Sequence record: NC_054930.1
Reading direction: 5' to 3' (one strand)
DNA: 64,000 nucleotides
From: Escherichia phage PP01
Shown here: piece after piece, positions 1 through 47,243 of the stretch
How positions within the stretch are numbered: position 1 is the stretch's first letter
Layout of the letters: each line of letters begins with the position of its first letter
The notes under the pieces: model-generated
Told to the model about the DNA's origin: nothing
The model's database searches: none
The model's input: only the letters and a program-made list of their open reading frames with translations
Translations under genes and position numbers: made by a program

Positions 1-113
1 TATTTTCAAAAGAGCTTCAGGATATGAGCGACGACTACGCGCCAGTTATATTTGTGGATTCGGTTCATTCTGCTGAGTATGTTCCAGTATCTCATGGTAT
101 GTCAATGGTATAA
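1..113 (+). CDS. 17: 3' end of upstream ORF (...DDYAPVIFVDSVHSAEYVPVSHGMSMV*); by synteny the C-terminus of large terminase gp17
   Basis: In-frame ORF running off the 5' edge, stop TAA 111-113; lies directly upstream of gene 18 as in T4. Confidence 0.5.
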   Translation, partial: FSKELQDMSDDYAPVIFVDSVHSAEYVPVSHGMSMV

Positions 114-116
114 ATA
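109..116 (+). promoter_or_regulatory. T4-type late promoter (TATAAATA) for gene 18
   Basis: Exact TATAAATA about 30 nt upstream of the gene 18 ATG. Confidence 0.7.
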
Positions 117-144: not shown

Positions 145-2124
145 ATGACTTTATTATCTCCGGGCATTGAGCTCAAAGAAACTACGGTTCAAAGCACCGT
201 GGTTAATAACTCTACTGGTACAGCAGCTTTGGCCGGTAAATTCCAGTGGGGTCCTGCTTTTCAGATTAAACAGGTTACAAACGAAGTAGATTTAGTTAAT
301 ACTTTTGGTCAACCAACCGCTGAAACTGCTGACTATTTTATGTCTGCGATGAATTTCTTACAGTACGGAAATGACTTACGAGTAGTTCGTGCTGTTGATA
401 GAGATACCGCTAAAAACTCATCTCCGATTGCTGGTAATATTGAATACACAATTTCTACCCCAGGTAGTAACTACGCGGTTGGAGATAAAATCACGGTCAA
501 ATATGTTTCAGATGATATTGAAACTGAAGGTAAAATTACTGAAGTAGACGCAGATGGAAAAATTAAGAAAATTAATATTCCTACTGCAAAAATTATCGCT
601 AAAGCGAAAGAAGTAGGTGAATATCCAACACTAGGTTCTAACTGGACTGCGGAAATTTCTTCATCTTCCTCTGGTTTAGCTGCAGTAATAACTCTTGGAA
701 AAATTATTACTGATTCTGGTATTTTATTAGCTGAAATTGAAAATGCTGAAGCTGCTATGACAGCGGTTGACTTTCAAGCAAATCTCGAAAAATACGGAAT
801 TCCAGGAGTAGTAGCTCTTTATCCAGGCGAATTAGGCGATAAAATTGAAATTGAAATCGTATCTAAAGCTGACTATGCAAAAGGAGCTTCTGCATTACTC
901 CCAATTTATCCAGGTGGTGGTACTCGTGCATCTACTGCCAAAGCAGTGTTTGGATATGGACCACAAACTGATTCACAGTATGCTATTATAGTTCGTCGTA
1001 ATGATGCTATTGTTCAAAGCGTTGTTCTTTCAACTAAGCGCGGTGAAAAAGATATTTACGATAGTAACATCTATATCGATGACTTTTTCGCAAAAGGCGG
1101 CTCAGAATATATTTTTGCAACTGCACAAAACTGGCCAGAAGGCTTCTCTGGAATTTTAACTCTGTCTGGTGGATTATCATCAAATGCTGAAGTAACAGCA
1201 GGAGATTTGATGGAAGCTTGGGACTTCTTTGCTGACCGTGAATCTGTTGACGTTCAGCTGTTTATTGCGGGTTCTTGTGCCGGTGAATCTTTAGAAACAG
1301 CATCTACTGTTCAAAAACACGTCGTTTCAATTGGGGATGCTCGCCAAGATTGCTTAGTATTGTGCTCTCCTCCGCGTGAAACTGTAGTTGGAATTCCTGT
1401 AACTCGTGCTGTTGATAACTTAGTCAATTGGAGAACTGCAGCAGGTTCATACACTGATAATAACTTTAATATCAGTTCAACCTACGCAGCAATTGATGGT
1501 AACTACAAGTATCAGTATGACAAATATAATGATGTGAATCGTTGGGTTCCATTAGCAGCTGATATTGCTGGTTTATGTGCAAGAACTGATAACGTTTCTC
1601 AGACTTGGATGTCACCAGCTGGTTATAATCGTGGCCAAATTTTGAACGTTATTAAACTGGCTATTGAAACTCGCCAGGCTCAGCGCGACCGTTTATACCA
1701 AGAAGCTATCAACCCAGTAACTGGTACAGGTGGTGATGGTTACGTATTGTATGGTGATAAAACAGCTACTTCTGTTCCTTCTCCATTTGATCGTATTAAC
1801 GTTCGTCGTCTGTTTAATATGTTGAAAACGAACATCGGACGTAGTTCAAAATATCGTTTGTTCGAATTAAACAACGCGTTTACTCGTTCATCATTCCGCA
1901 CAGAAACTGCCCAGTACTTACAGGGAATTAAAGCTCTCGGTGGAATTTATGAATATCGTGTAGTTTGCGATACAACAAATAACACTCCGTCAGTAATTGA
2001 TAGAAATGAGTTTGTTGCAACATTCTACATCCAACCGGCTCGTAGTATAAATTATATCCAACTTAATTTCGTCGCAACTGCTACTGGTGCAGATTTTGAT
2101 GAGTTAACTGGTCTTGCAGGTTAA
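145..2124 (+). CDS. 18: Tail sheath protein gp18
   Basis: 659 aa; N-terminus MTLLSPGIELKETTVQ matches remembered T4 gp18; synteny. Confidence 0.97.
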   Translation: MTLLSPGIELKETTVQSTVVNNSTGTAALAGKFQWGPAFQIKQVTNEVDLVNTFGQPTAETADYFMSAMNFLQYGNDLRVVRAVDRDTAKNSSPIAGNIEYTISTPGSNYAVGDKITVKYVSDDIETEGKITEVDADGKIKKINIPTAKIIAKAKEVGEYPTLGSNWTAEISSSSSGLAAVITLGKIITDSGILLAEIENAEAAMTAVDFQANLEKYGIPGVVALYPGELGDKIEIEIVSKADYAKGASALLPIYPGGGTRASTAKAVFGYGPQTDSQYAIIVRRNDAIVQSVVLSTKRGEKDIYDSNIYIDDFFAKGGSEYIFATAQNWPEGFSGILTLSGGLSSNAEVTAGDLMEAWDFFADRESVDVQLFIAGSCAGESLETASTVQKHVVSIGDARQDCLVLCSPPRETVVGIPVTRAVDNLVNWRTAAGSYTDNNFNISSTYAAIDGNYKYQYDKYNDVNRWVPLAADIAGLCARTDNVSQTWMSPAGYNRGQILNVIKLAIETRQAQRDRLYQEAINPVTGTGGDGYVLYGDKTATSVPSPFDRINVRRLFNMLKTNIGRSSKYRLFELNNAFTRSSFRTETAQYLQGIKALGGIYEYRVVCDTTNNTPSVIDRNEFVATFYIQPARSINYIQLNFVATATGADFDELTGLAG

Positions 2125-2132
2125 TTGATAAG

Positions 2133-2146
2133 GGGCTTCGGCCCCT
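2133..2146 (+). terminator. GC hairpin GGGGC-UUCG-GCCCC after gene 18
   Basis: Perfect 5-bp GC stem with UUCG tetraloop seen in sequence. Confidence 0.5.
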
Positions 2147-2162
2147 ATTCTCGAGGAATCAA

Positions 2163-2768
2163 GTGATTATTTCTAAGTTTGTTACAATAAAACCAAGAAA
2201 TCATTCAAAAATGTGGTCGACAATTCTGGGATATAAAGTATCATATCATGATACAGTATCTGTTCCAATAGAATTAATGCCAAAGAATAGTAATAAAATA
2301 GTTGACGCTAAATGTGATTTGTGTGGTATTAAATTTAGTAGAAGCATTCAGCTTTTAAATAGAACACCAACGCATGCATGTAGAAAATGTAGCATTAAAC
2401 AAGTTGCTATTAAAAATTCGGAAGTTCAATCTGGAATAAGTAGACCATGGCAAAGAGGTGATAAACATCCTCGATGGACTGGTAAAAGAAAAGAGTTTGC
2501 ATTATATGCTAGTAGAGTTCATTCTATAACTAAGTCAGCTAAAATAAGAAAAATCTGGTCAAAATGGCCAAATGCTGATAAAATAGGAGTGTGTGGCGTA
2601 GAAGGTGCTTACCAACTCGATCATAAAGTATCTATCAAATATGGATTTGATAATTTAATTCCGCCGGAAATTATAGCAAGCGTAAAAAATTTAGAAATAA
2701 TCACTTGGGAATCTAACCGAGAAAAATCAAAAAGAAATAGCGTAGATCTTTGGGATTTACTAGAATGA
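2163..2768 (+). CDS. Free-standing HNH-family endonuclease (putative homing endonuclease) with N-terminal Cys4 zinc-finger-like motif
   Basis: 201 aa; CDLCG...CRKC cysteine pairs; C-terminal LDHKVSIKYGFDN...WESNREKS fits the H-N-H signature; GTG start 6 nt after GAGGA; inserted between genes 18 and 19. Confidence 0.75.
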   Translation: MIISKFVTIKPRNHSKMWSTILGYKVSYHDTVSVPIELMPKNSNKIVDAKCDLCGIKFSRSIQLLNRTPTHACRKCSIKQVAIKNSEVQSGISRPWQRGDKHPRWTGKRKEFALYASRVHSITKSAKIRKIWSKWPNADKIGVCGVEGAYQLDHKVSIKYGFDNLIPPEIIASVKNLEIITWESNREKSKRNSVDLWDLLE

Positions 2769-2774
2769 TTCTAA

Positions 2775-2793
2775 AGGCCTGTTTCGGCAGGCC
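2775..2793 (+). terminator. Hairpin GGCCUG-uuucgg-CAGGCC after the HNH ORF
   Basis: Inverted repeat seen in sequence. Confidence 0.4.
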
Positions 2794-2794
2794 A

Positions 2795-2802
2795 TATAAA
2801 TA
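2795..2802 (+). promoter_or_regulatory. Late promoter TATAAATA (distal, gene 19)
   Basis: Exact TATAAATA. Confidence 0.55.
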
Positions 2803-2853
2803 CACTATATCCTTAATTCTTTAATTCTATATGCCCTAGGTTAAACATAGGGA

Positions 2854-2861
2854 TATAAATA
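2854..2861 (+). promoter_or_regulatory. Late promoter TATAAATA (proximal, gene 19)
   Basis: Exact TATAAATA 15 nt upstream of the gene 19 ATG. Confidence 0.7.
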
Positions 2862-2875
2862 CTACAGAGGCTAAT

Positions 2876-3367
2876 ATGTTTGTAGATGATGTAACACGAG
2901 CGTTTGAATCTGGTGATTTTGCTCGACCTAACTTATTCCAAGTAGAAATTTCTTATCTTGGACAAAATTTTACGTTTCAATGTAAAGCCACTGCTTTACC
3001 AGCTGGTATTGTAGAAAAAATTCCAGTTGGATTTATGAACCGTAAAATTAACGTAGCAGGCGATCGTACATTCGATGACTGGACTGTTACAGTAATGAAC
3101 GATGAAGCTCATGATGCTCGCCAGAAGTTCGTTGATTGGCAAAGCATTGCTGCGGGGCAAGGAAACGAAATTACTGGTGGAAAACCTGCAGAGTATAAAA
3201 AGAGCGCTATCGTTCGTCAATATGCTCGTGACGCTAAAACAGTAACAAAAGAAATTGAAATTAAAGGTCTGTGGCCTACTAACGTGGGTGAACTTCAATT
3301 AGATTGGGATTCAAACAACGAAATCCAAACATTTGAAGTAACTCTTGCTCTCGATTATTGGGAATAA
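2876..3367 (+). CDS. 19: Tail tube protein gp19
   Basis: 163 aa; T4 gp19-like sequence and position. Confidence 0.95.
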   Translation: MFVDDVTRAFESGDFARPNLFQVEISYLGQNFTFQCKATALPAGIVEKIPVGFMNRKINVAGDRTFDDWTVTVMNDEAHDARQKFVDWQSIAAGQGNEITGGKPAEYKKSAIVRQYARDAKTVTKEIEIKGLWPTNVGELQLDWDSNNEIQTFEVTLALDYWE

Positions 3368-3374
3368 AATGAAT

Positions 3375-3388
3375 GGGGAGAAATCCCC
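3375..3388 (+). terminator. Hairpin GGGGA-GAAA-UCCCC after gene 19
   Basis: Inverted repeat with GNRA loop. Confidence 0.4.
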
Positions 3389-3399
3389 ATCCTGCTTAA

Positions 3400-5024
<1,625 letters not shown>

Positions 5025-8800: not shown

Positions 8801-9471
8801 CTATTTTATACGATAGCAATCAGGCATATCATCCGCATTTATCCAATTGCGAATAGTTTTAGGACTAACTTTAAAATGCTCCGCTGCGTAATCAGGATTA
8901 TCAAATTTAACGCCCTTTATACATATTGGAATAAATTTTTTAATACCACCAAGTTTTTCAGAAATAGCTTTACGGTGTGAAATCGATATAGGTTTATTTT
9001 TTCGTGGATGAACATGTGTTTTATAATATTCATTGCGCCCTTTAACTCGCTTCGCAATAGTTTCATCAGATTGCTTAACGCCTGTTTTTGCCTTTGATAT
9101 TTTTCGTTTAGCTTCCACAGTCATTCCTTCTTTTGTTCGTATTGATAACATATTACGATATGAAGGATCTTGCAAATGAACTATAACTGGATTTCCTCTG
9201 CCACCAATAGCAGCATTATAGGTATCAGTTCTCATAACGAATTCCTCATTGACTAGTAAAGCTTCCATTTTATACATCTCCTCAGATGAGGAGAAAGAAT
9301 AAAGAATTTCTTTTTAAAGTTATGAATACCATATTTTTTGATGGATTTTTTGATGTTTACGCCAGAACCCATATAACCATCGTTTTCGTCAAGAGTAGCA
9401 TGAGCTCCGATGTAAATTTTTCCATTGATGATATTAGTAATTTGATATATTAAATATTTCATTTTAAACAT
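8801..9471 (-). pseudogene. segD: GIY-YIG homing endonuclease segD, split by a -1 frameshift in an A5 tract (N-terminal ORF to 9253, C-terminal ORF 8801..9277)
   Basis: N-terminal part has [18 protein letters not shown]...YMGSG (GIY-YIG); restoring one A at about 9311-9316 fuses ...[30 protein letters not shown]... into a 223-aa protein, the remembered T4 SegD length. Confidence 0.75.
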
Positions 9472-14590: not shown

Positions 14591-14619
14591 TAGATATATT
14601 TATTACATGGTATTTAGAC

Positions 14620-16131
14620 ATGACTGACATTAAAGTACATTTTTACGATTTTAGTCACGTGAGAATTGATTGTGAAGAAAGTACATTTCATGAACTCCGT
14701 GATTTCTTTAGCTTTGAAGCTGATGGGTATCGTTTTAATCCGAAATACAAATATGGTCACTGGGATGGACGAATCCGTCTTTTAGATTATAATCGCCTTC
14801 TTCCATTCGGTTTAGTTGGGCAAATTAAAAAGTTCTGTGATAACTTTGGCTATAAAGCCTGGATTGACCCGCAAATTAATGAAAAAGAAGAATTATCAAG
14901 AAAAGATTTTGATGAATGGATTTCTAAATTAGAAATCTATTCAGGAAATAAAAGAATTGAACCACACTGGTATCAAAAAGATGCAGTGTTCGAAGGATTA
15001 GTTAATCGTCGTAGAATTCTTAATCTTCCAACATCCGCAGGTAAATCTTTAATTCAAGCTTTGCTTGCACGTTATTATTTGGAAAATTATGAAGGTAAAA
15101 TTCTTATCATTGTTCCAACAACTGCTTTAACAACTCAGATGGCTGATGACTTTGTTGACTATCGTTTATTCAGTCATGCAATGATAAAGAAAATCGGTGG
15201 TGGAGCATCAAAAGATGATAAATATAAAAATGATGCACCAGTCGTTGTGGGTACATGGCAAACTGTAGTAAAACAACCAAAAGAATGGTTTTCCCAATTT
15301 GGTATGATGATGAATGATGAATGCCATCTTGCTACAGGAAAAAGTATTTCATCTATCATATCGGGTTTAAATAACTGCATGTTCAAATTCGGTTTGTCTG
15401 GTTCATTACGTGATGGAAAAGCCAATATCATGCAGTATGTTGGAATGTTTGGTGAAATATTTAAGCCAGTAACGACTTCTAAATTAATGGAAGATGGGCA
15501 AGTAACTGAGCTAAAAATTAATAGTATTTTTCTTCGCTATCCTGATGAGTTCACTACTAAATTAAAGGGAAAAACTTACCAAGAAGAAATAAAAATTATT
15601 ACTGGACTCAGTAAAAGAAATAAATGGATTGCTAAATTAGCTATTAAACTTGCACAAAAAGATGAAAACGCTTTTGTCATGTTTAAGCATGTATCACATG
15701 GTAAAGCTATTTTCGATTTAATTAAAAATGAATACGATAAAGTTTATTACGTATCAGGGGAAGTTGATACCGAAACACGCAACGTAATGAAAACCTTAGC
15801 TGAAAACGGTAAAGGAATAATTATAGTAGCTAGTTATGGTGTATTTTCTACTGGTATTTCAGTTAAAAATCTGCATCACGTTATTTTAGCGCACGGTGTT
15901 AAATCTAAAATTATTGTATTGCAAACAATAGGTCGCGTATTACGTAAGCATGGTTCTAAAACAATCGCAACGGTCTGGGACCTCATAGATGATTGTGGTG
16001 TTAAGCCAAAATCTGCTAATACGAAAAAGAAATATGTTCATTTGAACTATCTTTTAAAACACGGCATTGATCGTATTCAGCGCTACGCAGATGAAAAATT
16101 TAATTACGTAATGAAAACAGTTAATTTATAA
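14620..16131 (+). CDS. uvsW: UvsW SF2 DNA helicase (recombination and repair)
   Basis: 503 aa; Walker A PTSAGKS and DECH box; synteny. Confidence 0.95.
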   Translation: MTDIKVHFYDFSHVRIDCEESTFHELRDFFSFEADGYRFNPKYKYGHWDGRIRLLDYNRLLPFGLVGQIKKFCDNFGYKAWIDPQINEKEELSRKDFDEWISKLEIYSGNKRIEPHWYQKDAVFEGLVNRRRILNLPTSAGKSLIQALLARYYLENYEGKILIIVPTTALTTQMADDFVDYRLFSHAMIKKIGGGASKDDKYKNDAPVVVGTWQTVVKQPKEWFSQFGMMMNDECHLATGKSISSIISGLNNCMFKFGLSGSLRDGKANIMQYVGMFGEIFKPVTTSKLMEDGQVTELKINSIFLRYPDEFTTKLKGKTYQEEIKIITGLSKRNKWIAKLAIKLAQKDENAFVMFKHVSHGKAIFDLIKNEYDKVYYVSGEVDTETRNVMKTLAENGKGIIIVASYGVFSTGISVKNLHHVILAHGVKSKIIVLQTIGRVLRKHGSKTIATVWDLIDDCGVKPKSANTKKKYVHLNYLLKHGIDRIQRYADEKFNYVMKTVNL

Positions 16132-16635: not shown

Positions 16636-16643
16636 TATTTATA
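16636..16643 (-). promoter_or_regulatory. Late promoter TATAAATA (minus strand) upstream of the 55-aa ORF
   Basis: Reverse complement is exact TATAAATA. Confidence 0.55.
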
Positions 16644-16733
16644 ACCCCATCTTAAAACGCATTTCTTGTACACGCTTTAAACATGCTTCCATTTCTGCTA
16701 AAAGTCTAAATACTTCTTTATAATTTGTCATAT

Positions 16734-16961
16734 TTACCCCATATCTCTCATATGCATATCAATGCCCATATCTTTAGAATAAAAATATTCATCAAGATAT
16801 CCGGCAAATTTTCCTTTAATATAAAGGACATCTTCACCACACGGGTGGTCGGCCAGGATACGAATATCCTGACGCTTGAGATTATACTTTTTCATTAAGA
16901 ATTGAATTTCCGTTTCAAATTCTTCTTCATAATTAAAAGCATCATCAATGCTATATCTCAT
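16734..16961 (-). CDS. uvsY.-1: Hypothetical protein (T4 uvsY.-1 position)
   Basis: 75 aa; start overlaps the uvsY stop. Confidence 0.75.
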   Translation of the reverse strand: MRYSIDDAFNYEEEFETEIQFLMKKYNLKRQDIRILADHPCGEDVLYIKGKFAGYLDEYFYSKDMGIDMHMRDMG

Positions 16962-32548: not shown

Positions 32549-32756
32549 CTTTAATACTTATAATTTCAATATCAGCCCAATGACCGTAACCTGGTAGACG
32601 GTCCTCAATGGATAATCCGCCATCATATTTAAGCATTTTAATTGTCATAATATATGGCTCTAAATGGTCTTCTGTGAGAGGAGAAACGTCAGTCACACGA
32701 TAAGTAACTTCAACCATTTCCGTACCTAATAATTTCTGAATTAATTTCTTAAACAT
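32541..32756 (-). CDS. Hypothetical protein (T4 30.3' position)
   Basis: 71 aa ORF. Confidence 0.6.
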   Translation of the reverse strand: MFKKLIQKLLGTEMVEVTYRVTDVSPLTEDHLEPYIMTIKMLKYDGGLSIEDRLPGYGHWADIEIISIKDV

Positions 32757-37680: not shown

Positions 37681-37881
37681 TTACCTCACATAATTTTCTT
37701 CAAGCCAATCAATAACATCCAACGCATTATCAAAAGTTGAACCATCTACTTTGTCTTCTGTTTCATAATCAAGAACATCTAAACCTACTCTTCCATCAAC
37801 AATAGGCCATAAACAAAATAGATATTTCTTTTCTTTTTCAATTTTATCACAAAGTCGATAAATCTTTTCTATGTTATTCAT
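37681..37881 (-). CDS. Hypothetical protein (cd.5 position)
   Basis: 66 aa ORF. Confidence 0.55.
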   Translation of the reverse strand: MNNIEKIYRLCDKIEKEKKYLFCLWPIVDGRVGLDVLDYETEDKVDGSTFDNALDVIDWLEENYVR

Positions 37882-38070
37882 AAGTTTTCCATGGTAAAGG
37901 CAGTTTAGTTTTCTTTACTGTTAGTTCAACATCAGGATTCTTTTCTCTTAATTTAAGACATTCCTCCCAAGCCCTAATTTCACTAGTGAATACGCAAAAT
38001 TGCCCATTACTAGTACCAACTAAATCGCTATTTACAATAACAATAGCCCAAGTTTCATGATGCCAAGCCA

Positions 38071-42339: not shown

Positions 42340-43509
42340 TTAAAAATATTTTTTAAAACTCATCATAACTTTATCATCAACATCATTATCAATCTGTGCT
42401 ACAAGGTAAGATGACAGTTCTACTTCTTGCGGCGCGGATTGAACATTATCAGAATTAAGATATTCACGAATCCAAGGATATGGATGTTTAACCGGAGCAT
42501 CGGTAATTGGGCATGGAAGACCGCACTGTTTCATACGAGATACAGTTAAGTAATCAATAAAGCTCCACATGCTATTTGTATTTAATCCAGGAACATCACC
42601 ATCTTTAAATAAATGAACTGCCCAATCTTTTTCTTGACGGTTAACTTCCATGAAAATATCAACTGCTTCTTGTTCACACTCTTGAGCAATTTTAACCCAT
42701 TCATCACCGTCAGTGCCAAGTTGAAGTTGACGAATAATATATTGAGTGCCTTTAAGATGAAGTTGCTCATCGCGCGCAATGAACTTCATAATCTTAGCAT
42801 TACCTTCCATGATTTCCATGTTCTTATGGAAGTTAAAGGTACATGCGAAAGATACATAAAAACGAATAGCTTCCAATGCATTGATTACATGAAGGCAAAG
42901 ATAAAGAGATTTCATTAGTGCTCGTTTAGTACATTCAACAACTTTGCCTAACTCTTCTTTACGAAATCCTTCTGATAAAATTCCTTCATAATCTTCAACC
43001 GCATTCTGATATTCACGAGTCTTAACTAGAACATCATCATAATAGCGACCAATGGACTCGGCACGTTTCATAATAGCTTTATCTAATACAATCTCATCAA
43101 ATACCTTTGATGGATCAGTATAAAGATTTCGCATGATATGAGTATATGAACGGCTGTGAATAGTTTCACTAAAAGTCCATGTAGCAACCCATGTATCAAG
43201 ACTTGGGTCTGAAATTAATGACATAAGTACAGCAGACGGTGCACGACCCTGAATGCTATCCAAAAGTGATTGATACTTCAGGTTATTAGTAAAAATATCT
43301 TGCTGATACTGAGGAAGCTTGTTAAATTGTGCAGCATCCATCATCAAGTTTACTTCTTCAGGACGCCAGAAAAATGACAACTGCTTTTCAGTTAAATCTT
43401 CAAAAACTTTATGACGTTGAATATCATAACGCGCAATACCAAGACCTGAACCGAAGAACATAGGTTCTTTTAAAACATCAACTGGATTTGTATTAAAAAC
43501 TGTGCTCAT
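42340..43509 (-). CDS. nrdB: Ribonucleotide reductase small subunit, uninterrupted (no intron)
   Basis: 389-aa continuous ORF. Confidence 0.95.
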   Translation of the reverse strand: MSTVFNTNPVDVLKEPMFFGSGLGIARYDIQRHKVFEDLTEKQLSFFWRPEEVNLMMDAAQFNKLPQYQQDIFTNNLKYQSLLDSIQGRAPSAVLMSLISDPSLDTWVATWTFSETIHSRSYTHIMRNLYTDPSKVFDEIVLDKAIMKRAESIGRYYDDVLVKTREYQNAVEDYEGILSEGFRKEELGKVVECTKRALMKSLYLCLHVINALEAIRFYVSFACTFNFHKNMEIMEGNAKIMKFIARDEQLHLKGTQYIIRQLQLGTDGDEWVKIAQECEQEAVDIFMEVNRQEKDWAVHLFKDGDVPGLNTNSMWSFIDYLTVSRMKQCGLPCPITDAPVKHPYPWIREYLNSDNVQSAPQEVELSSYLVAQIDNDVDDKVMMSFKKYF

Positions 43510-43560
43510 AAATTTTCCGCTTAGTTAATAGATAGTGACTCGTCCGTGAGTCAAATTATA

Positions 43561-45825
43561 TCATAATTTACAGGATGAACAATCTTCAGCTTTTGGAGTT
43601 TCTATTTCATAATCATCAGTACCAGAACCATCACGGGTATTATGATAATAGAAATTTTTTCCGCCAAAATACCAAAAATACAAAAGGTCATCAATCATTA
43701 CAGACATTGGAACCTTTCCTTTTGGAAAAATCTGCGGGTCATAATATGTATTCGCTGAAGCTGATTGACATACCCATTTCAGCATAATAGCTACCTGCGT
43801 AAGATAAGGTTTATTACCTTTCTTAGCTAATTTCCATGTATAATCATAGAGGTCTATGTTATGTTCAATATTGGGCACGACTTGATTAAAGGAACCCTCT
43901 TTTGATTCTTTAACCGAGACTGGTCCACGTGGAGGCTCGATACCATTTGTACTGTTAGAAACTTGGGAAGATGACTCACATGGCATAAGTGCTGATAATG
44001 TGCTATTACGGATGCCAAAGAGCTTAAGGTCTTCCCGCAGCGCCGACCAGTCACAAACGTATTTTGGAGCTGCGATTTGATCAATCTTTTTATTGTACCA
44101 GTCGATAGGTAATTCGTCTCGAGACCAACGAGTGTCTGAATAATATTCGCAAGGTCCTTTTTCTTTGGCGAGCTTAATGGATGCTTTAATGAGTCCATAC
44201 TGTAGTCTCTCAAATAGTTCATGTGTTAAATCGTTAGCATCTTCATAAGAAGCAAAGTTACTTGCCAGCCAAGCTGCATAGTTAGTAACACCTACACCAA
44301 GATTTCGACGCTTTTTAGCTTTTTCTGCTTCAGGAACTGGATATCCTTGGTAATCCAAAAGATTATCAAGAGCACGAACTTGGACTTCTGCCAATTCATT
44401 AATTTTATCTTGGTCTTGCCAATCGAAGTTATCCAACACAAATGCAGATAACGTACACAATCCAATTTCAGCATCAGGACTATTCACATCATTTGTTGGA
44501 ATAGCAATTTCACAGCACAAGTTACTCTGACGAATAGGTGCCTTTTCACGAATAAACGGAGTATAGTTATTCGTATTATCAATGAACTGTACATAAATCC
44601 TTGCTGTTCCTGAGCGTTCAGTCATGAGCAATTCAAATAATTCACGAGCTTTAATACGCTTTTTACGAATATTAGGATCTTTTTCTGCTGCTTCGTATAA
44701 TTCACGGAAACGGTCTTGGTCTTTAAAATAAGAATAATAAAGCTCGCCACCCATTTCATGCGGACTGAACAAAGTAATGTAGTCGTTCTTTCCAAACCGT
44801 TCCATCATCAAATCATTCAGCTGGACGCCATAATCCATATGACGGATACGGTTTTCTTCTACACCTTTGTTATTTTTCAAAACGAGAAGATTTTCAACTT
44901 CCAAATGCCAAATAGGATAATAAGCAGTAGCAGCGCCGCCACGAATTCCGCCCTGTGAACATGATTTAACAGCAGTCTGAAAATGTTTCCAAAAAGGAAT
45001 AACCCCAGTATGACGCACTTCACCTGTGCCAATCTTAGAACCTTCGGCACGAATCATACCAACGTTAATGCCGATTCCAGCTCGTTTAGAAATATACTCA
45101 ACAATTGAAGCAGAAGCCTTATTGATAGACTTCAGCGAATCACCTGCCTCAATAACAACGCATGAACTAAATTGCCGAGTCGGAGTACGACATCCAGCCA
45201 TAATAGGAGTTGGCAATGAAATCTGTCGAGTAGATACTGCTTCATAAAAACGGATAACGTGTTTTAATCTATCAACAGGTTCATCTTGATGCAATGCCAT
45301 TCCAATAGTCATAAATGCAAACTGTGGAGTTTCATAAATTTGACCAGTGGTTTTATCTTTAACGAGATATTTTTCTTTTAATTGCATCGCCCCGGAATAA
45401 GTAAATTCCATATCCCGCTCATGCTTAATTTTTGATTCTAAAAATGTAATTTCTTCTGCTGAATATTTTGACAACAATTCAGGGTCATATTTACCTTCAT
45501 TTACGCAGTAAGAAATATGGTCAATAAATGAACGTGGTTCATACTGCCCATAAACATGCTTACGAAGAGCGAACATTAAACAGCGCGCAGCTACGTATTG
45601 ATAATCAGGCTCTTCAACTGAAATAGAATTCGCAGCAGCCTTAATGACAATAGTCTGAATGTCATCAGTTGTCATTCCATCACGGAGATATGATTTAATA
45701 TTTTCATATAATTCATAAGGATCTACAGATGTTCCTTCAGCTGCCCAAGATAAAACTTTAATAATTTTTTGCGGGTCAAAGCTTTGAGAAACACCACTAC
45801 TTTTGATAACATTAATTAATTGCAT
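43561..45825 (-). CDS. nrdA: Ribonucleotide reductase large subunit
   Basis: 754 aa; synteny. Confidence 0.96.
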   Translation of the reverse strand: MQLINVIKSSGVSQSFDPQKIIKVLSWAAEGTSVDPYELYENIKSYLRDGMTTDDIQTIVIKAAANSISVEEPDYQYVAARCLMFALRKHVYGQYEPRSFIDHISYCVNEGKYDPELLSKYSAEEITFLESKIKHERDMEFTYSGAMQLKEKYLVKDKTTGQIYETPQFAFMTIGMALHQDEPVDRLKHVIRFYEAVSTRQISLPTPIMAGCRTPTRQFSSCVVIEAGDSLKSINKASASIVEYISKRAGIGINVGMIRAEGSKIGTGEVRHTGVIPFWKHFQTAVKSCSQGGIRGGAATAYYPIWHLEVENLLVLKNNKGVEENRIRHMDYGVQLNDLMMERFGKNDYITLFSPHEMGGELYYSYFKDQDRFRELYEAAEKDPNIRKKRIKARELFELLMTERSGTARIYVQFIDNTNNYTPFIREKAPIRQSNLCCEIAIPTNDVNSPDAEIGLCTLSAFVLDNFDWQDQDKINELAEVQVRALDNLLDYQGYPVPEAEKAKKRRNLGVGVTNYAAWLASNFASYEDANDLTHELFERLQYGLIKASIKLAKEKGPCEYYSDTRWSRDELPIDWYNKKIDQIAAPKYVCDWSALREDLKLFGIRNSTLSALMPCESSSQVSNSTNGIEPPRGPVSVKESKEGSFNQVVPNIEHNIDLYDYTWKLAKKGNKPYLTQVAIMLKWVCQSASANTYYDPQIFPKGKVPMSVMIDDLLYFWYFGGKNFYYHNTRDGSGTDDYEIETPKAEDCSSCKL

Positions 45826-46382: not shown

Positions 46383-47243
46383 TTATACCGCCATCTTTCC
46401 TTTAATTGGCGGGTGAGATACATAGTTGTTAAGAACGAAATCTTTAGGTCTAAGTTTAAGAACATATTTTAATTGTTCTTTAGTAGAAAGATATCGGAAT
46501 TTATAAGGTAGACCACTTATTACCAGCTCACAAAGCTCTTTAGGTTCACGCCTCAAAATTTCTTTACACTGTTCTACGTGATTCATATAGATATGAGTAT
46601 TACCACCAGAAAATATCAAATCTCCTGGAATAAGATTACACATCTTAGCTACAATATGAACTAACGTAGCATATGATGCAATATTAAATGGAAGACCGAG
46701 AAAAACATCTACCGAACGTTGATACCACTGCAAATCCAAATAGCCATTACGCACATTAAACTGATAGAACATATGACAAGGCGGTAATGCCATATATTTA
46801 AGTTCAGCTGGATTCCATGCTGAAACAATTTGACGCCTATCATTTGGCAGTTTTTTAATACGATCAACAACTTCTATAATTTGGTCTACACCACCAAAAT
46901 CACGCCACTGTTTTCCATAAATTGGACCAAGTTCACCGCTATGATACCCTAAATCTTTTGCCTGATTTTCGTAATTTTCATCCCAAACTGTTTTGCCTTG
47001 AATTAATGAATCGTGCTGAATTAATCGTAAATCATTGACATTTGTGCTTCCTGATAAAAACCAAAGCAGCTCAGCAATGCAAGCTTTCCAGGCGAGCTTC
47101 TTAGTTGTTACCGCAGGAAAACCTTTAGTTAAATCCCAGCGTAATTTAGTACCAAACAAAGCAATTGTTCCTGTGCCTGTTCGGTCATCGGTTTCATAGC
47201 CATTTTCAAAAATGTCTTTAATTAAATCTTGGTATTGTTTCAT
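46383..47243 (-). CDS. td: Thymidylate synthase, uninterrupted (no group I intron)
   Basis: 286-aa continuous ORF; N-terminus MKQYQDLIKDIFENGY; active-site PCH. Confidence 0.97.
   Translation of the reverse strand: MKQYQDLIKDIFENGYETDDRTGTGTIALFGTKLRWDLTKGFPAVTTKKLAWKACIAELLWFLSGSTNVNDLRLIQHDSLIQGKTVWDENYENQAKDLGYHSGELGPIYGKQWRDFGGVDQIIEVVDRIKKLPNDRRQIVSAWNPAELKYMALPPCHMFYQFNVRNGYLDLQWYQRSVDVFLGLPFNIASYATLVHIVAKMCNLIPGDLIFSGGNTHIYMNHVEQCKEILRREPKELCELVISGLPYKFRYLSTKEQLKYVLKLRPKDFVLNNYVSHPPIKGKMAV

Follow-up and report, generated by a model that had tools for sequence, protein, structure and literature searches.

A putative homing endonuclease gene at the tail sheath/tail tube junction of Escherichia phage PP01

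The gene 18-gene 19 junction

Genes 18 (tail sheath) and 19 (tail tube) of phage T4 are only 116 bp apart, with no open reading frame (ORF) between them. In Escherichia phage PP01 a single ORF occupies this gap, and it is this ORF19.1-like gene, a putative homing endonuclease gene, that is considered here. The analysis deals with a 64,000-nt stretch of the PP01 genome (NC_054930.1), referred to below as the window, with positions counted from its first letter. The window is a Tequatrovirus segment; over 1800-3200 it is 99% identical to ECML-134 and 98% identical to T6. Gene 18 (145..2124, + strand) flanks the ORF upstream, and gene 19 (2876..3367) flanks it downstream and is followed by gene 20. 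The ORF itself (2163..2768, + strand) encodes 201 amino acids from a GTG start codon, and the Shine-Dalgarno sequence GAGGA (2153..2157, + strand), which can be read directly from the sequence, lies 5 nt 5' of the GTG. A first reading of the DNA made without database searches (the original prediction) had placed a GTG-initiated ORF of exactly this size between genes 18 and 19, and it was right to do so. The motif 'GAGGAA(T/A)CAAGTG' is kept in all eight copies of the gene that were fetched. The gene is also not new: 'ORF19.1' of T6, on record since 1994, encodes a 99% identical protein at the same position, and its depositors noted the same GTG start.

Alignment with T4 and RB9 delimits the inserted cassette as the 643 bp at 2125..2767 (+ strand). 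The cassette replaces 8 nt of T4 sequence, TACGGTGC, that in T4 separate the stop codon of gene 18 from its native hairpin; the remainder of the gap up to gene 19 (2768-2875) is 100% identical to T4. Alignment with empty sites reveals no target-site duplication at the cassette boundaries. The proposal that the ORF is an insertion relative to T4 is thus upheld by these exact boundaries and by the presence/absence polymorphism described below, but the inserted segment, originally given as 2125-2875, has to be corrected to 2125..2767.

The two hairpins that had been seen to bracket the ORF both exist, but they do not constitute the layout of a mobile element, since the downstream one is native. 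The upstream hairpin (2131..2146, + strand; C(UUCG)G tetraloop, -13.0 kcal/mol, z -2.95) lies directly 3' of the gene 18 stop codon, belongs to the insert and stands in for the native post-gene-18 hairpin. It is found in all of the insert-bearing Tequatrovirus copies that were examined, and the Karamvirus and Gelderlandvirus copies have analogous hairpins; marine copies of the gene lack hairpins and yet lie in the same 18/19 gap. Because no run of U residues follows it, the upstream hairpin is probably a leaky terminator or a stabiliser of RNA 3' ends. (The 5' arm of this hairpin contains an in-frame ATG in T6 and RB9 (ATGGGGC), the source of gene calls of 212-216 amino acids. The corresponding codon in the window reads TAAGGGGC, so that only the GTG start is usable there.) The native gene 18 hairpin (2776..2793, + strand; UUCG tetraloop, -12.8 kcal/mol, z -3.87), which now lies 3' of the ORF, is identical in T4, T2 and other insert-free genomes.

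Two late-promoter motifs, TATAAATA, serve gene 19 (2795-2802 and 2854-2861, + strand). A motif search finds both of them in the window, and the sequence is identical in T4; with the downstream hairpin, they are identified as native by their 100% identity to insert-free T4, and they leave the expression of gene 19 independent of the insert. The sole TATAAATA upstream of the ORF is the one that precedes gene 18 (109..116, + strand): the motif search of the window found none between 117 and 2794. Sigma-70-like sites are not enriched at the ORF, and no early promoter was found there. Lacking a late promoter of its own, the ORF presumably depends for late expression on transcripts that read through from gene 18. 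An extended RNA fold that would partly hide the Shine-Dalgarno sequence is predicted, but it is not significant (z -1.15).

The protein

The N-terminal region of the protein (residues 1 to ~90) is a putative DNA-binding domain. It contains a Cys4 motif (CxxC-x18-CxxC; residues C51, C54, C73 and C76, encoded at 2313..2390, + strand) resembling a treble-clef zinc finger, and the zinc-finger-like character noted in the original prediction is borne out by its conservation: in 43 homologues C54 is invariant and each of the other three cysteines is kept in at least 90%. An AlphaFold2 model shows the Cys4 region as a beta-hairpin and then a helix (a zinc knuckle plus helix), 15 of the 43 homologues match the DUF4379 treble clef weakly, and phrog_12131, which is annotated as 'homing endonuclease', matches residues 2-87 (E 4e-4).

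The C-terminal domain has an HNH-like (H-N-N) beta-beta-alpha core (2610..2726, + strand) with the residues Y150-Q-L-D153-H154...G161...N176-L...W182...N185-R-x-K188. Fourteen residues are invariant in the 43 homologues (C54, Y115, G145, Q151, D153, H154, S157, G161, N176, L177, W182, N185, R186 and K188). Further comparisons used a profile of the C-terminal 78 residues; a set of 144 far more diverse domain homologues comprises its best 143 representatives (E<=1e-19) and the window protein. D153, H154, G161, N176 and N185 are still invariant in this set. D153, H154, N176 and N185 are invariant in all three alignments that were made (43, 34 and 144 sequences), and K188, invariant in the first, is kept in at least 90% of the sequences in the other two. 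The spacing of the resulting pattern, DH-x6-G...N-L-x7-N-x2-K, equals that of the canonical DHxxPxxxGG...NLxxLCxxCHxxK; the last His of canonical HNH is replaced by Asn and the core cysteines are absent, which makes this an H-N-N variant. The predicted fold, two strands followed by a helix that would carry the metal ligand, is the beta-beta-alpha arrangement expected. Thus the C-terminal signature that had been read as H-N-H is real in its invariant D-H...N...N pattern, but its middle Asn is N176 (in 'KNLEII') and not the variable N164 of 'GFDN'.

The domain profile recovers 4,034 representatives of phage protein clusters at E<=1e-3; at E<=1e-10 the number is 1,044. Fifteen of the 144 domain homologues match Pfam HNH_4 at E<=1 (best 3.5e-4), every one of them below threshold, when by our own estimate (144 proteins/24,736 models) chance would provide ~0.006 hits for any one family; no other catalytic family is frequent among the Pfam matches of this set. 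Domain-only sequences in which the canonical Pro is retained ('YQLDHIIPI') reach 19.9 bits on HNH_4, the cut-off being 22, and also match PF01844 weakly (E 0.05-0.09) on the expected YQLDH segment. Elsewhere the domain is joined to NUMOD3 (20 of 144), HTH_23/28/7/38, sigma-70 region 4, zinc ribbons and DUF7487, fusions with the 'beads on a string' organisation that homing endonucleases of phages have. Judged by the residue pattern and these relationships, the protein very probably is a nuclease of the HNH superfamily, but a divergent one that falls below the threshold of any curated family. The protein's own PHROG family (PHROG 5104) has unknown function. A Foldseek search against the PDB gave no significant match, comparison of the full-length profile with PDB sequences returned only zinc-finger and mitoribosomal mS66 noise, and an Rfam search produced no match.

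One misleading identity was considered and rejected. Among PDB sequences the domain profile matches leucine-rich repeat (LRR) proteins by way of 'IPPEIIGxIxNLxIIxWxxN', but this is a single unit, whose score is summed over the repeats of the target. The stretch in question, IPPEIIASVKNLEIITWESNR (ORF residues 165-186, nt ~2655-2720), mimics one LRR unit well enough for Leptospira LRR proteins to be matched at E 4e-4, and constitutes a trap for automated annotation.

The same H-N-N domain is also found in the middle of larger IMG/VR proteins of ~545-580 amino acids (L070, L072, L076 and L083), which share a conserved C-terminal extension ('...YFYV.DG...HR..FRK......WDCG...').

Distribution and alleles

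The junction with the insert is covered to at least 80% in ~116 phage records, the empty junction of T4 to at least 80% in ~382, the Tequatrovirus genomes concerned being otherwise collinear. About three quarters of the close Tequatrovirus relatives, T4 and T2 included, are without the gene, so that it is not the conserved gene of all T-even relatives that would have spoken against the original prediction. The family as a whole is found (by tblastn) in 237 phage records, in 231 of them at full length, on hosts that include Escherichia, Klebsiella, Acinetobacter, Serratia, Enterobacter and, for the phiM12-type phages, Sinorhizobium. Most of these records call the product a 'hypothetical protein'; a few say 'HNH endonuclease', 'homing endonuclease' or 'type II restriction endonuclease'. 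The intact ORF in the 18-19 gap of RB9 (L003, KM606998, 1506-2156) is unannotated in GenBank; the T6 copy lies at 1826-2470 of its record (L001). Three records under other host names carry the Tequatrovirus locus at 92-99% identity (OR584013, 'Pseudomonas phage PsgM02F'; PV654520, 'Pseudomonas phage vB_PSGBLB0006'; MG010123, 'Staphylococcus phage SAJK-IND'), and are probably mislabelled as to host or contaminant assemblies.

T4-like phages that are only very distantly related have the gene in this gap too. Among 33 full-length relatives in IMG/VR, 27 lie between gp18 and gp19, two are at contig ends and one is inverted in the gap; this placement holds even where gp18 is only 38-50% identical to that of the window. 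(The inverted member, on the metagenomic T4-like contig L029, IMGVR_UViG_3300009563_000455, at 2887-3474, is opposite in strand to the flanking gp18 and gp19.) Relatives that share only the C-terminal domain lie mostly outside the 18/19 gap, and by these placements it is the N-terminal domain that tracks the insertion site.

Two alleles are distinguished. The window and T6 carry type A (~70 records); type B, of RB9, RB3 and Sf22, encodes 205 amino acids from the same GTG. The first ~6 and the last ~70 codons are common to both, the zinc-finger regions are essentially unrelated and overall identity is 50%, while the backbones in which the two types sit have 99-100% identical gp18 and gp19. Nor do distances in gene 18 group the phages by presence of the ORF19.1-like gene: over 890 nt of gene 18 the nearest relatives of the window are e11/2 (14 differences) and T4 (18), both without the gene, and other type-A carriers differ from it by 23-30. 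The allele mosaicism and the inverted copy argue for horizontal exchange. At the same time the gene is being maintained by purifying selection, as indicated by the ratios of synonymous to nonsynonymous codon differences among type-A copies (6:1, 7:1, 16:2, 9:2, 12:3 and 15:3) and by the intactness of the copies, all eight of those fetched retaining the Shine-Dalgarno sequence, the GTG start and full length.

A third allele, type C, is carried by vB_EcoM_005, CHI14 and X20-like phages (L017, L019 and L021). It encodes 227 amino acids, is ~34% identical and ends 3 nt before the gp19 start codon; the copy in L017 has a TATAAATA of its own upstream. Near the end of gp18, L017 and L021 have 'ATT AAC TAC' and L019 has 'ATA AAT TAT'; the linkage of type C with 'ATT AAC TAC' in the first two suggests that its specificity may differ.

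The 3' end of gene 18

In three genera the last 30-100 nt, beside the insertion, are the only part of gene 18 to have diverged sharply. Between the window and T4 there are 14 differences within 33 nt (2041-2073) and none in the preceding 200 nt, and 10 of the 11 changed codons are synonymous, the other being a T->Q change. The patch lies in a segment (2035..2076, + strand) coding for PARSINYI(Q/T)LNFV, which is a candidate target, immunity or co-conversion patch. Compared in 90-nt windows, most of gp18 is 92-100% identical between the PP01 window and T4 and the last 90 nt only 82%. Pairs of phages with and without the gene behave in the same way in two other genera. For the Gelderlandviruses STP4-a (with the gene) and Melville (without), most gp18 windows are 96-100% identical and two are 90-92%, the last 87 nt are 75% identical and gp19 is 99-100% identical; for the Karamviruses EnA02 (with) and EnC15 (without), gp18 is mostly 97-100% identical, in places 88-94%, the lowest value, 81%, falls on the last 93 nt, and gp19 is 88-100% identical. 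In all three genera the changes are nearly all synonymous and lie within the codons of an invariant peptide, PARSINYI(T)LNF. At this place the sequence 'ATA AAT TAT AT' is common to type A/B carriers in five genera and does not occur in T4, Melville or EnC15. We regard this footprint as the most suggestive result of the analysis: it is what would be produced by co-conversion with a travelling endonuclease gene, or by selection for a target that resists cleavage.

It is just as possible that recognition would be of the empty junction itself. The insertion destroys this sequence, and it is kept in all seven insert-free genomes that were inspected, BCH953P4 having a single substitution in its hairpin stem. 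There are, then, two candidate targets of T4 type, 5'-ATTAACTACATTACCTTAAAC-3' in the end of gene 18 and the empty junction, TAA-TACGGTGC-ATTC.

Proposed homing and its alternatives

Our preferred interpretation, to which we assign a probability of roughly 70%, is that the ORF is a free-standing gene for a two-domain homing endonuclease of HNH type that targets the end of gene 18 or the 18/19 junction. That it would act on its essential neighbour agrees with the mosaic of alleles, with purifying selection on the gene and with the synonymous changes clustered at the end of gene 18 in three genera. Three features expected of a free-standing T-even homing endonuclease are found here: an optional gene at a fixed site, modular DNA-binding domains and a distribution that is incongruent with the phage backbone.

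Homing might proceed as follows. Leaky read-through of the UUCG hairpin late in infection, combined with a weak GTG start, would generate a little enzyme. The Cys4 zinc-finger domain would bind the conserved end of gene 18, or the empty junction, of a co-infecting genome that is free of the gene; the divergent H-N-N domain (Cas9/HNH_4-like) would nick or cut that genome; and T4-type recombination-dependent repair would copy into it the 643-bp cassette and, from the donor, a short stretch of the end of gene 18. Since the best structural matches are nickases, the enzyme may nick instead of making a double-strand break; nicking has been described for the T4 Mob enzymes (PMC13096335). The cassette would be neutral to the tail genes, placed as it is precisely after the stop codon of gene 18 and ahead of the native hairpin, with a UUCG hairpin of its own for gene 18 and with that native hairpin and both late promoters of gene 19 left intact. 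It probably also keeps its own expression low, through the GTG start, the lack of its own promoter and reliance on late read-through from gene 18.

Several results weigh against this interpretation. Neither the protein nor any of its 42 closest homologues matches a curated HNH profile in Pfam, NCBIfam or PADLOC, and no homologue reaches threshold on any curated HNH model. The original prediction had proposed a hidden Markov model search of the ORF as a check, and failure to match an HNH profile, as in these three collections, is formally the outcome that it had named as refuting it; the designation as an HNH-type nuclease is nevertheless likely from more remote evidence, the invariant catalytic pattern, the sub-threshold HNH_4 and HNH matches of homologues and the NUMOD3/HTH fusions. 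Profile-profile alignment (hhalign) with the colicin E9 DNase (the sequence used is identical to 1bxi_B) falls in the expected register but is not significant (E 0.44), and with MobE of T6, the only Mob protein compared, gives no meaningful alignment. A search of the accessible literature found no functional or experimental report on the ORF19.1 family. The gene 18 patch is also not strictly coupled to the gene: e11/2, RB14, SG1 and SP21535 have the window-type patch without it, and ~4 of the 116 carriers (YwIITB1, sb1, sb2 and sb3) have it with the T4-type patch. The notion of the patch as a strict immunity signature has been dropped, since its haplotypes occur both with and without the gene; what is retained is a footprint of a statistical and comparative kind.

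Deep conservation of position and purifying selection, which also tell against homing, would fit a useful accessory nuclease, inherited mainly vertically and repeatedly lost, that serves, for instance, in marker exclusion directed at the tail genes of co-infecting relatives or in DNA processing near the terminase-portal module. We consider this improbable. Around three quarters of Tequatroviruses, T4 and T2 among them, are fully viable without the gene; identical backbones hold alleles that are 50% identical, and in one metagenomic phage the copy in the gap is inverted; and synonymous divergence beside the site is a prediction of homing. An accessory function explains neither the alleles nor the local footprint better than homing does and, because marker exclusion itself results from cleavage of the homing type, this explanation partly overlaps the one that we prefer.

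The similar GC-rich UUCG hairpins on either side of the ORF raise the question of whether it is passive cargo, a zinc-finger DNA- or RNA-binding factor devoid of nuclease activity that is shuffled by intergenic stem-loops (PeSL-type). Shuffling by way of stem-loop cassettes is known from T4-type genomes (PMC2839356), and the failure of all HNH models to reach threshold would then be no surprise. The boundaries of the cassette, however, fall outside the hairpins, with the consequence that the two junctions, TAA|TTGATAA-hairpin and TAA|TACGGTGCATTCTAAA-hairpin, have no sequence in common through which they could recombine; an early promoter is lacking, so that the combination of promoter and junction stem-loop homology expected of the PeSL type is missing; marine copies occupy the same gap without any hairpins; and the invariance of D-H/N/N across ~4,000 clusters, with the NUMOD3/HTH fusions, argues for catalysis. 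On balance such shuffling is very improbable. A decayed, inactive homing endonuclease that hitch-hikes by linkage to the essential tail genes would make the few genomes that combine the gene with a T4-type, presumably sensitive, patch tolerable, and segD in the same window is indeed frameshifted; but purifying selection, judged by the synonymous:nonsynonymous ratios, is ongoing, the eight inspected copies are all intact with Shine-Dalgarno sequence and GTG, and the catalytic residues are invariant. We give a remnant of this kind hardly any credence.

A wider proposition can be put forward only tentatively, and we are inclined to doubt it: that the ORF19.1 clade is an ancient homing lineage devoted to a single site, which has tracked the sheath/tube junction throughout the T4-like superfamily by way of an invariant target in the sheath gene coding for PARSINYI(T)LNF, and whose catalytic module would define a large H-N-N subfamily (~4,000 clusters at 50% identity) that Pfam misses. 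The range of the lineage would extend from enterobacterial to marine and rhizobial phages. In a stronger version, the lineage may persist as an inter-phage weapon that excludes the tail-gene alleles of competitors, rather than as a purely selfish element.

Other features of the window

The segD gene (GIY-YIG) between genes 23 and 24 (8801-9471, - strand) is frameshifted relative to SegD of T6 (223 amino acids). Its first ~55 codons are read in a frame different from that of the remainder, the shift occurring at a run of A residues at ~9300-9310 ('FKKE' -> 'FKKK'), and the longest ORF is only 158 amino acids; either this is a pseudogene or the sequence is in error. Sites at which T6 has other mobile genes were checked at 14606-14626, 16116, 43509-43565 and 46691-46702: segE, T6ORF179 (which splits uvsW), mobE, which in T6 separates nrdA from nrdB, and the group I intron of td together with I-TevI are absent, and there is no room for segG between genes 32 and 59. 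With these absences and the frameshift in segD, the ORF19.1-like gene is the only intact homing-endonuclease-like gene seen in the 64 kb. Three segments have no megablast match to T6 (16643-16745, ~100 bp; 32585-32755, ~170 bp; 37720-38035, ~315 bp); in this order, they lie near uvsW.1/uvsY.-2, 30.3/30.4 and the cd.3/pseT region.

Significance

The general understanding of homing endonucleases is not changed by ORF19.1. What the analysis would offer is a functional label for a gene that is present in ~240 records of T4-like phages, including classical T6 and many candidates for therapeutic use. It would also delimit a divergent HNH module, one that present profile libraries miss and that is found widely in phage metagenomes. 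If its site specificity holds across genera, the family would provide a natural series in which to follow the co-evolution of a homing endonuclease with its target in a highly conserved structural gene. It is also a possible scaffold for a compact zinc-finger-HNH nickase or nuclease.

Relation to known systems

The record of T6 ORF19.1, the closest known counterpart, assigns no function, and no difference at the level of sequence separates that gene from the one in the window. The two phages are otherwise distinguishable, the window lacking the segE, mobE, td intron/I-TevI and uvsW inserts of T6 and being closest to ECML-134.

The domain homologues find their best-matching catalytic profile in Pfam HNH_4 (PF13395), the Cas9-type H-N-N family. 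The D-H...N-x8-N-R-x-K-S of the window protein resembles D839-H840...N854...N863-R-G-K-S of Cas9. The differences are that the window family stays below the HNH_4 gathering score in every case and has an extra two-helix insert between the two strands and that, unlike Cas9, it is not RNA-guided but joined to protein modules that bind DNA. Structurally, the best matches are small nicking HNH enzymes of phages (Geobacter Gme HNH, 4h9d; phage GVE2 HNH, 5h0o; T5 SciA, 9qgx). A terminase-associated HNH protein of the HK97 gp74/GVE2 type, although the closest structural match, was rejected as an identity: a partner of terminase would be universal in the lineage, and the gene is absent from T4, T2 and ~382 related records.

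SegF and SegG cleave conserved genes tens to hundreds of bp from their own insertion sites, with co-conversion of the flanking sequence and silent changes in the resistant allele. It is in this predicted biology only that ORF19.1 resembles these T4 GIY-YIG enzymes, which are responsible for marker exclusion of T2 genes 56 and 32 (PMC2988022); their nuclease superfamily is not that of the HNH-type window protein. Hef of phage U5 ('homing endonuclease-like function') is similar in being a free-standing T-even gene that was without a known motif when it was described (PMC2988022).

The MobA-E genes of T4 offer a general parallel: they are free-standing, lie between conserved genes, are optional in T-even phages, belong to the HNH superfamily and have a neighbouring gene as presumed target (PMC2988022). 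MobE, whose target is nrdB, is a characterised Mob homing endonuclease. The window protein differs from them in having no detectable sequence relationship (MobE being the one compared), in its Cys4 treble-clef DNA-binding domain, and in a motif that is H-N-N instead of H-N-H, with a 21-residue insert between the H and the first N. The 18/19 junction is not among the sites of genes for homing endonucleases in the review of T4 mobile elements (PMC2988022). ORF19.1, a gene known since 1994 but apparently uncharacterised, stands out for the unusual fidelity with which it keeps to one site, the sheath/tube junction, in phages throughout the T4-like superfamily.

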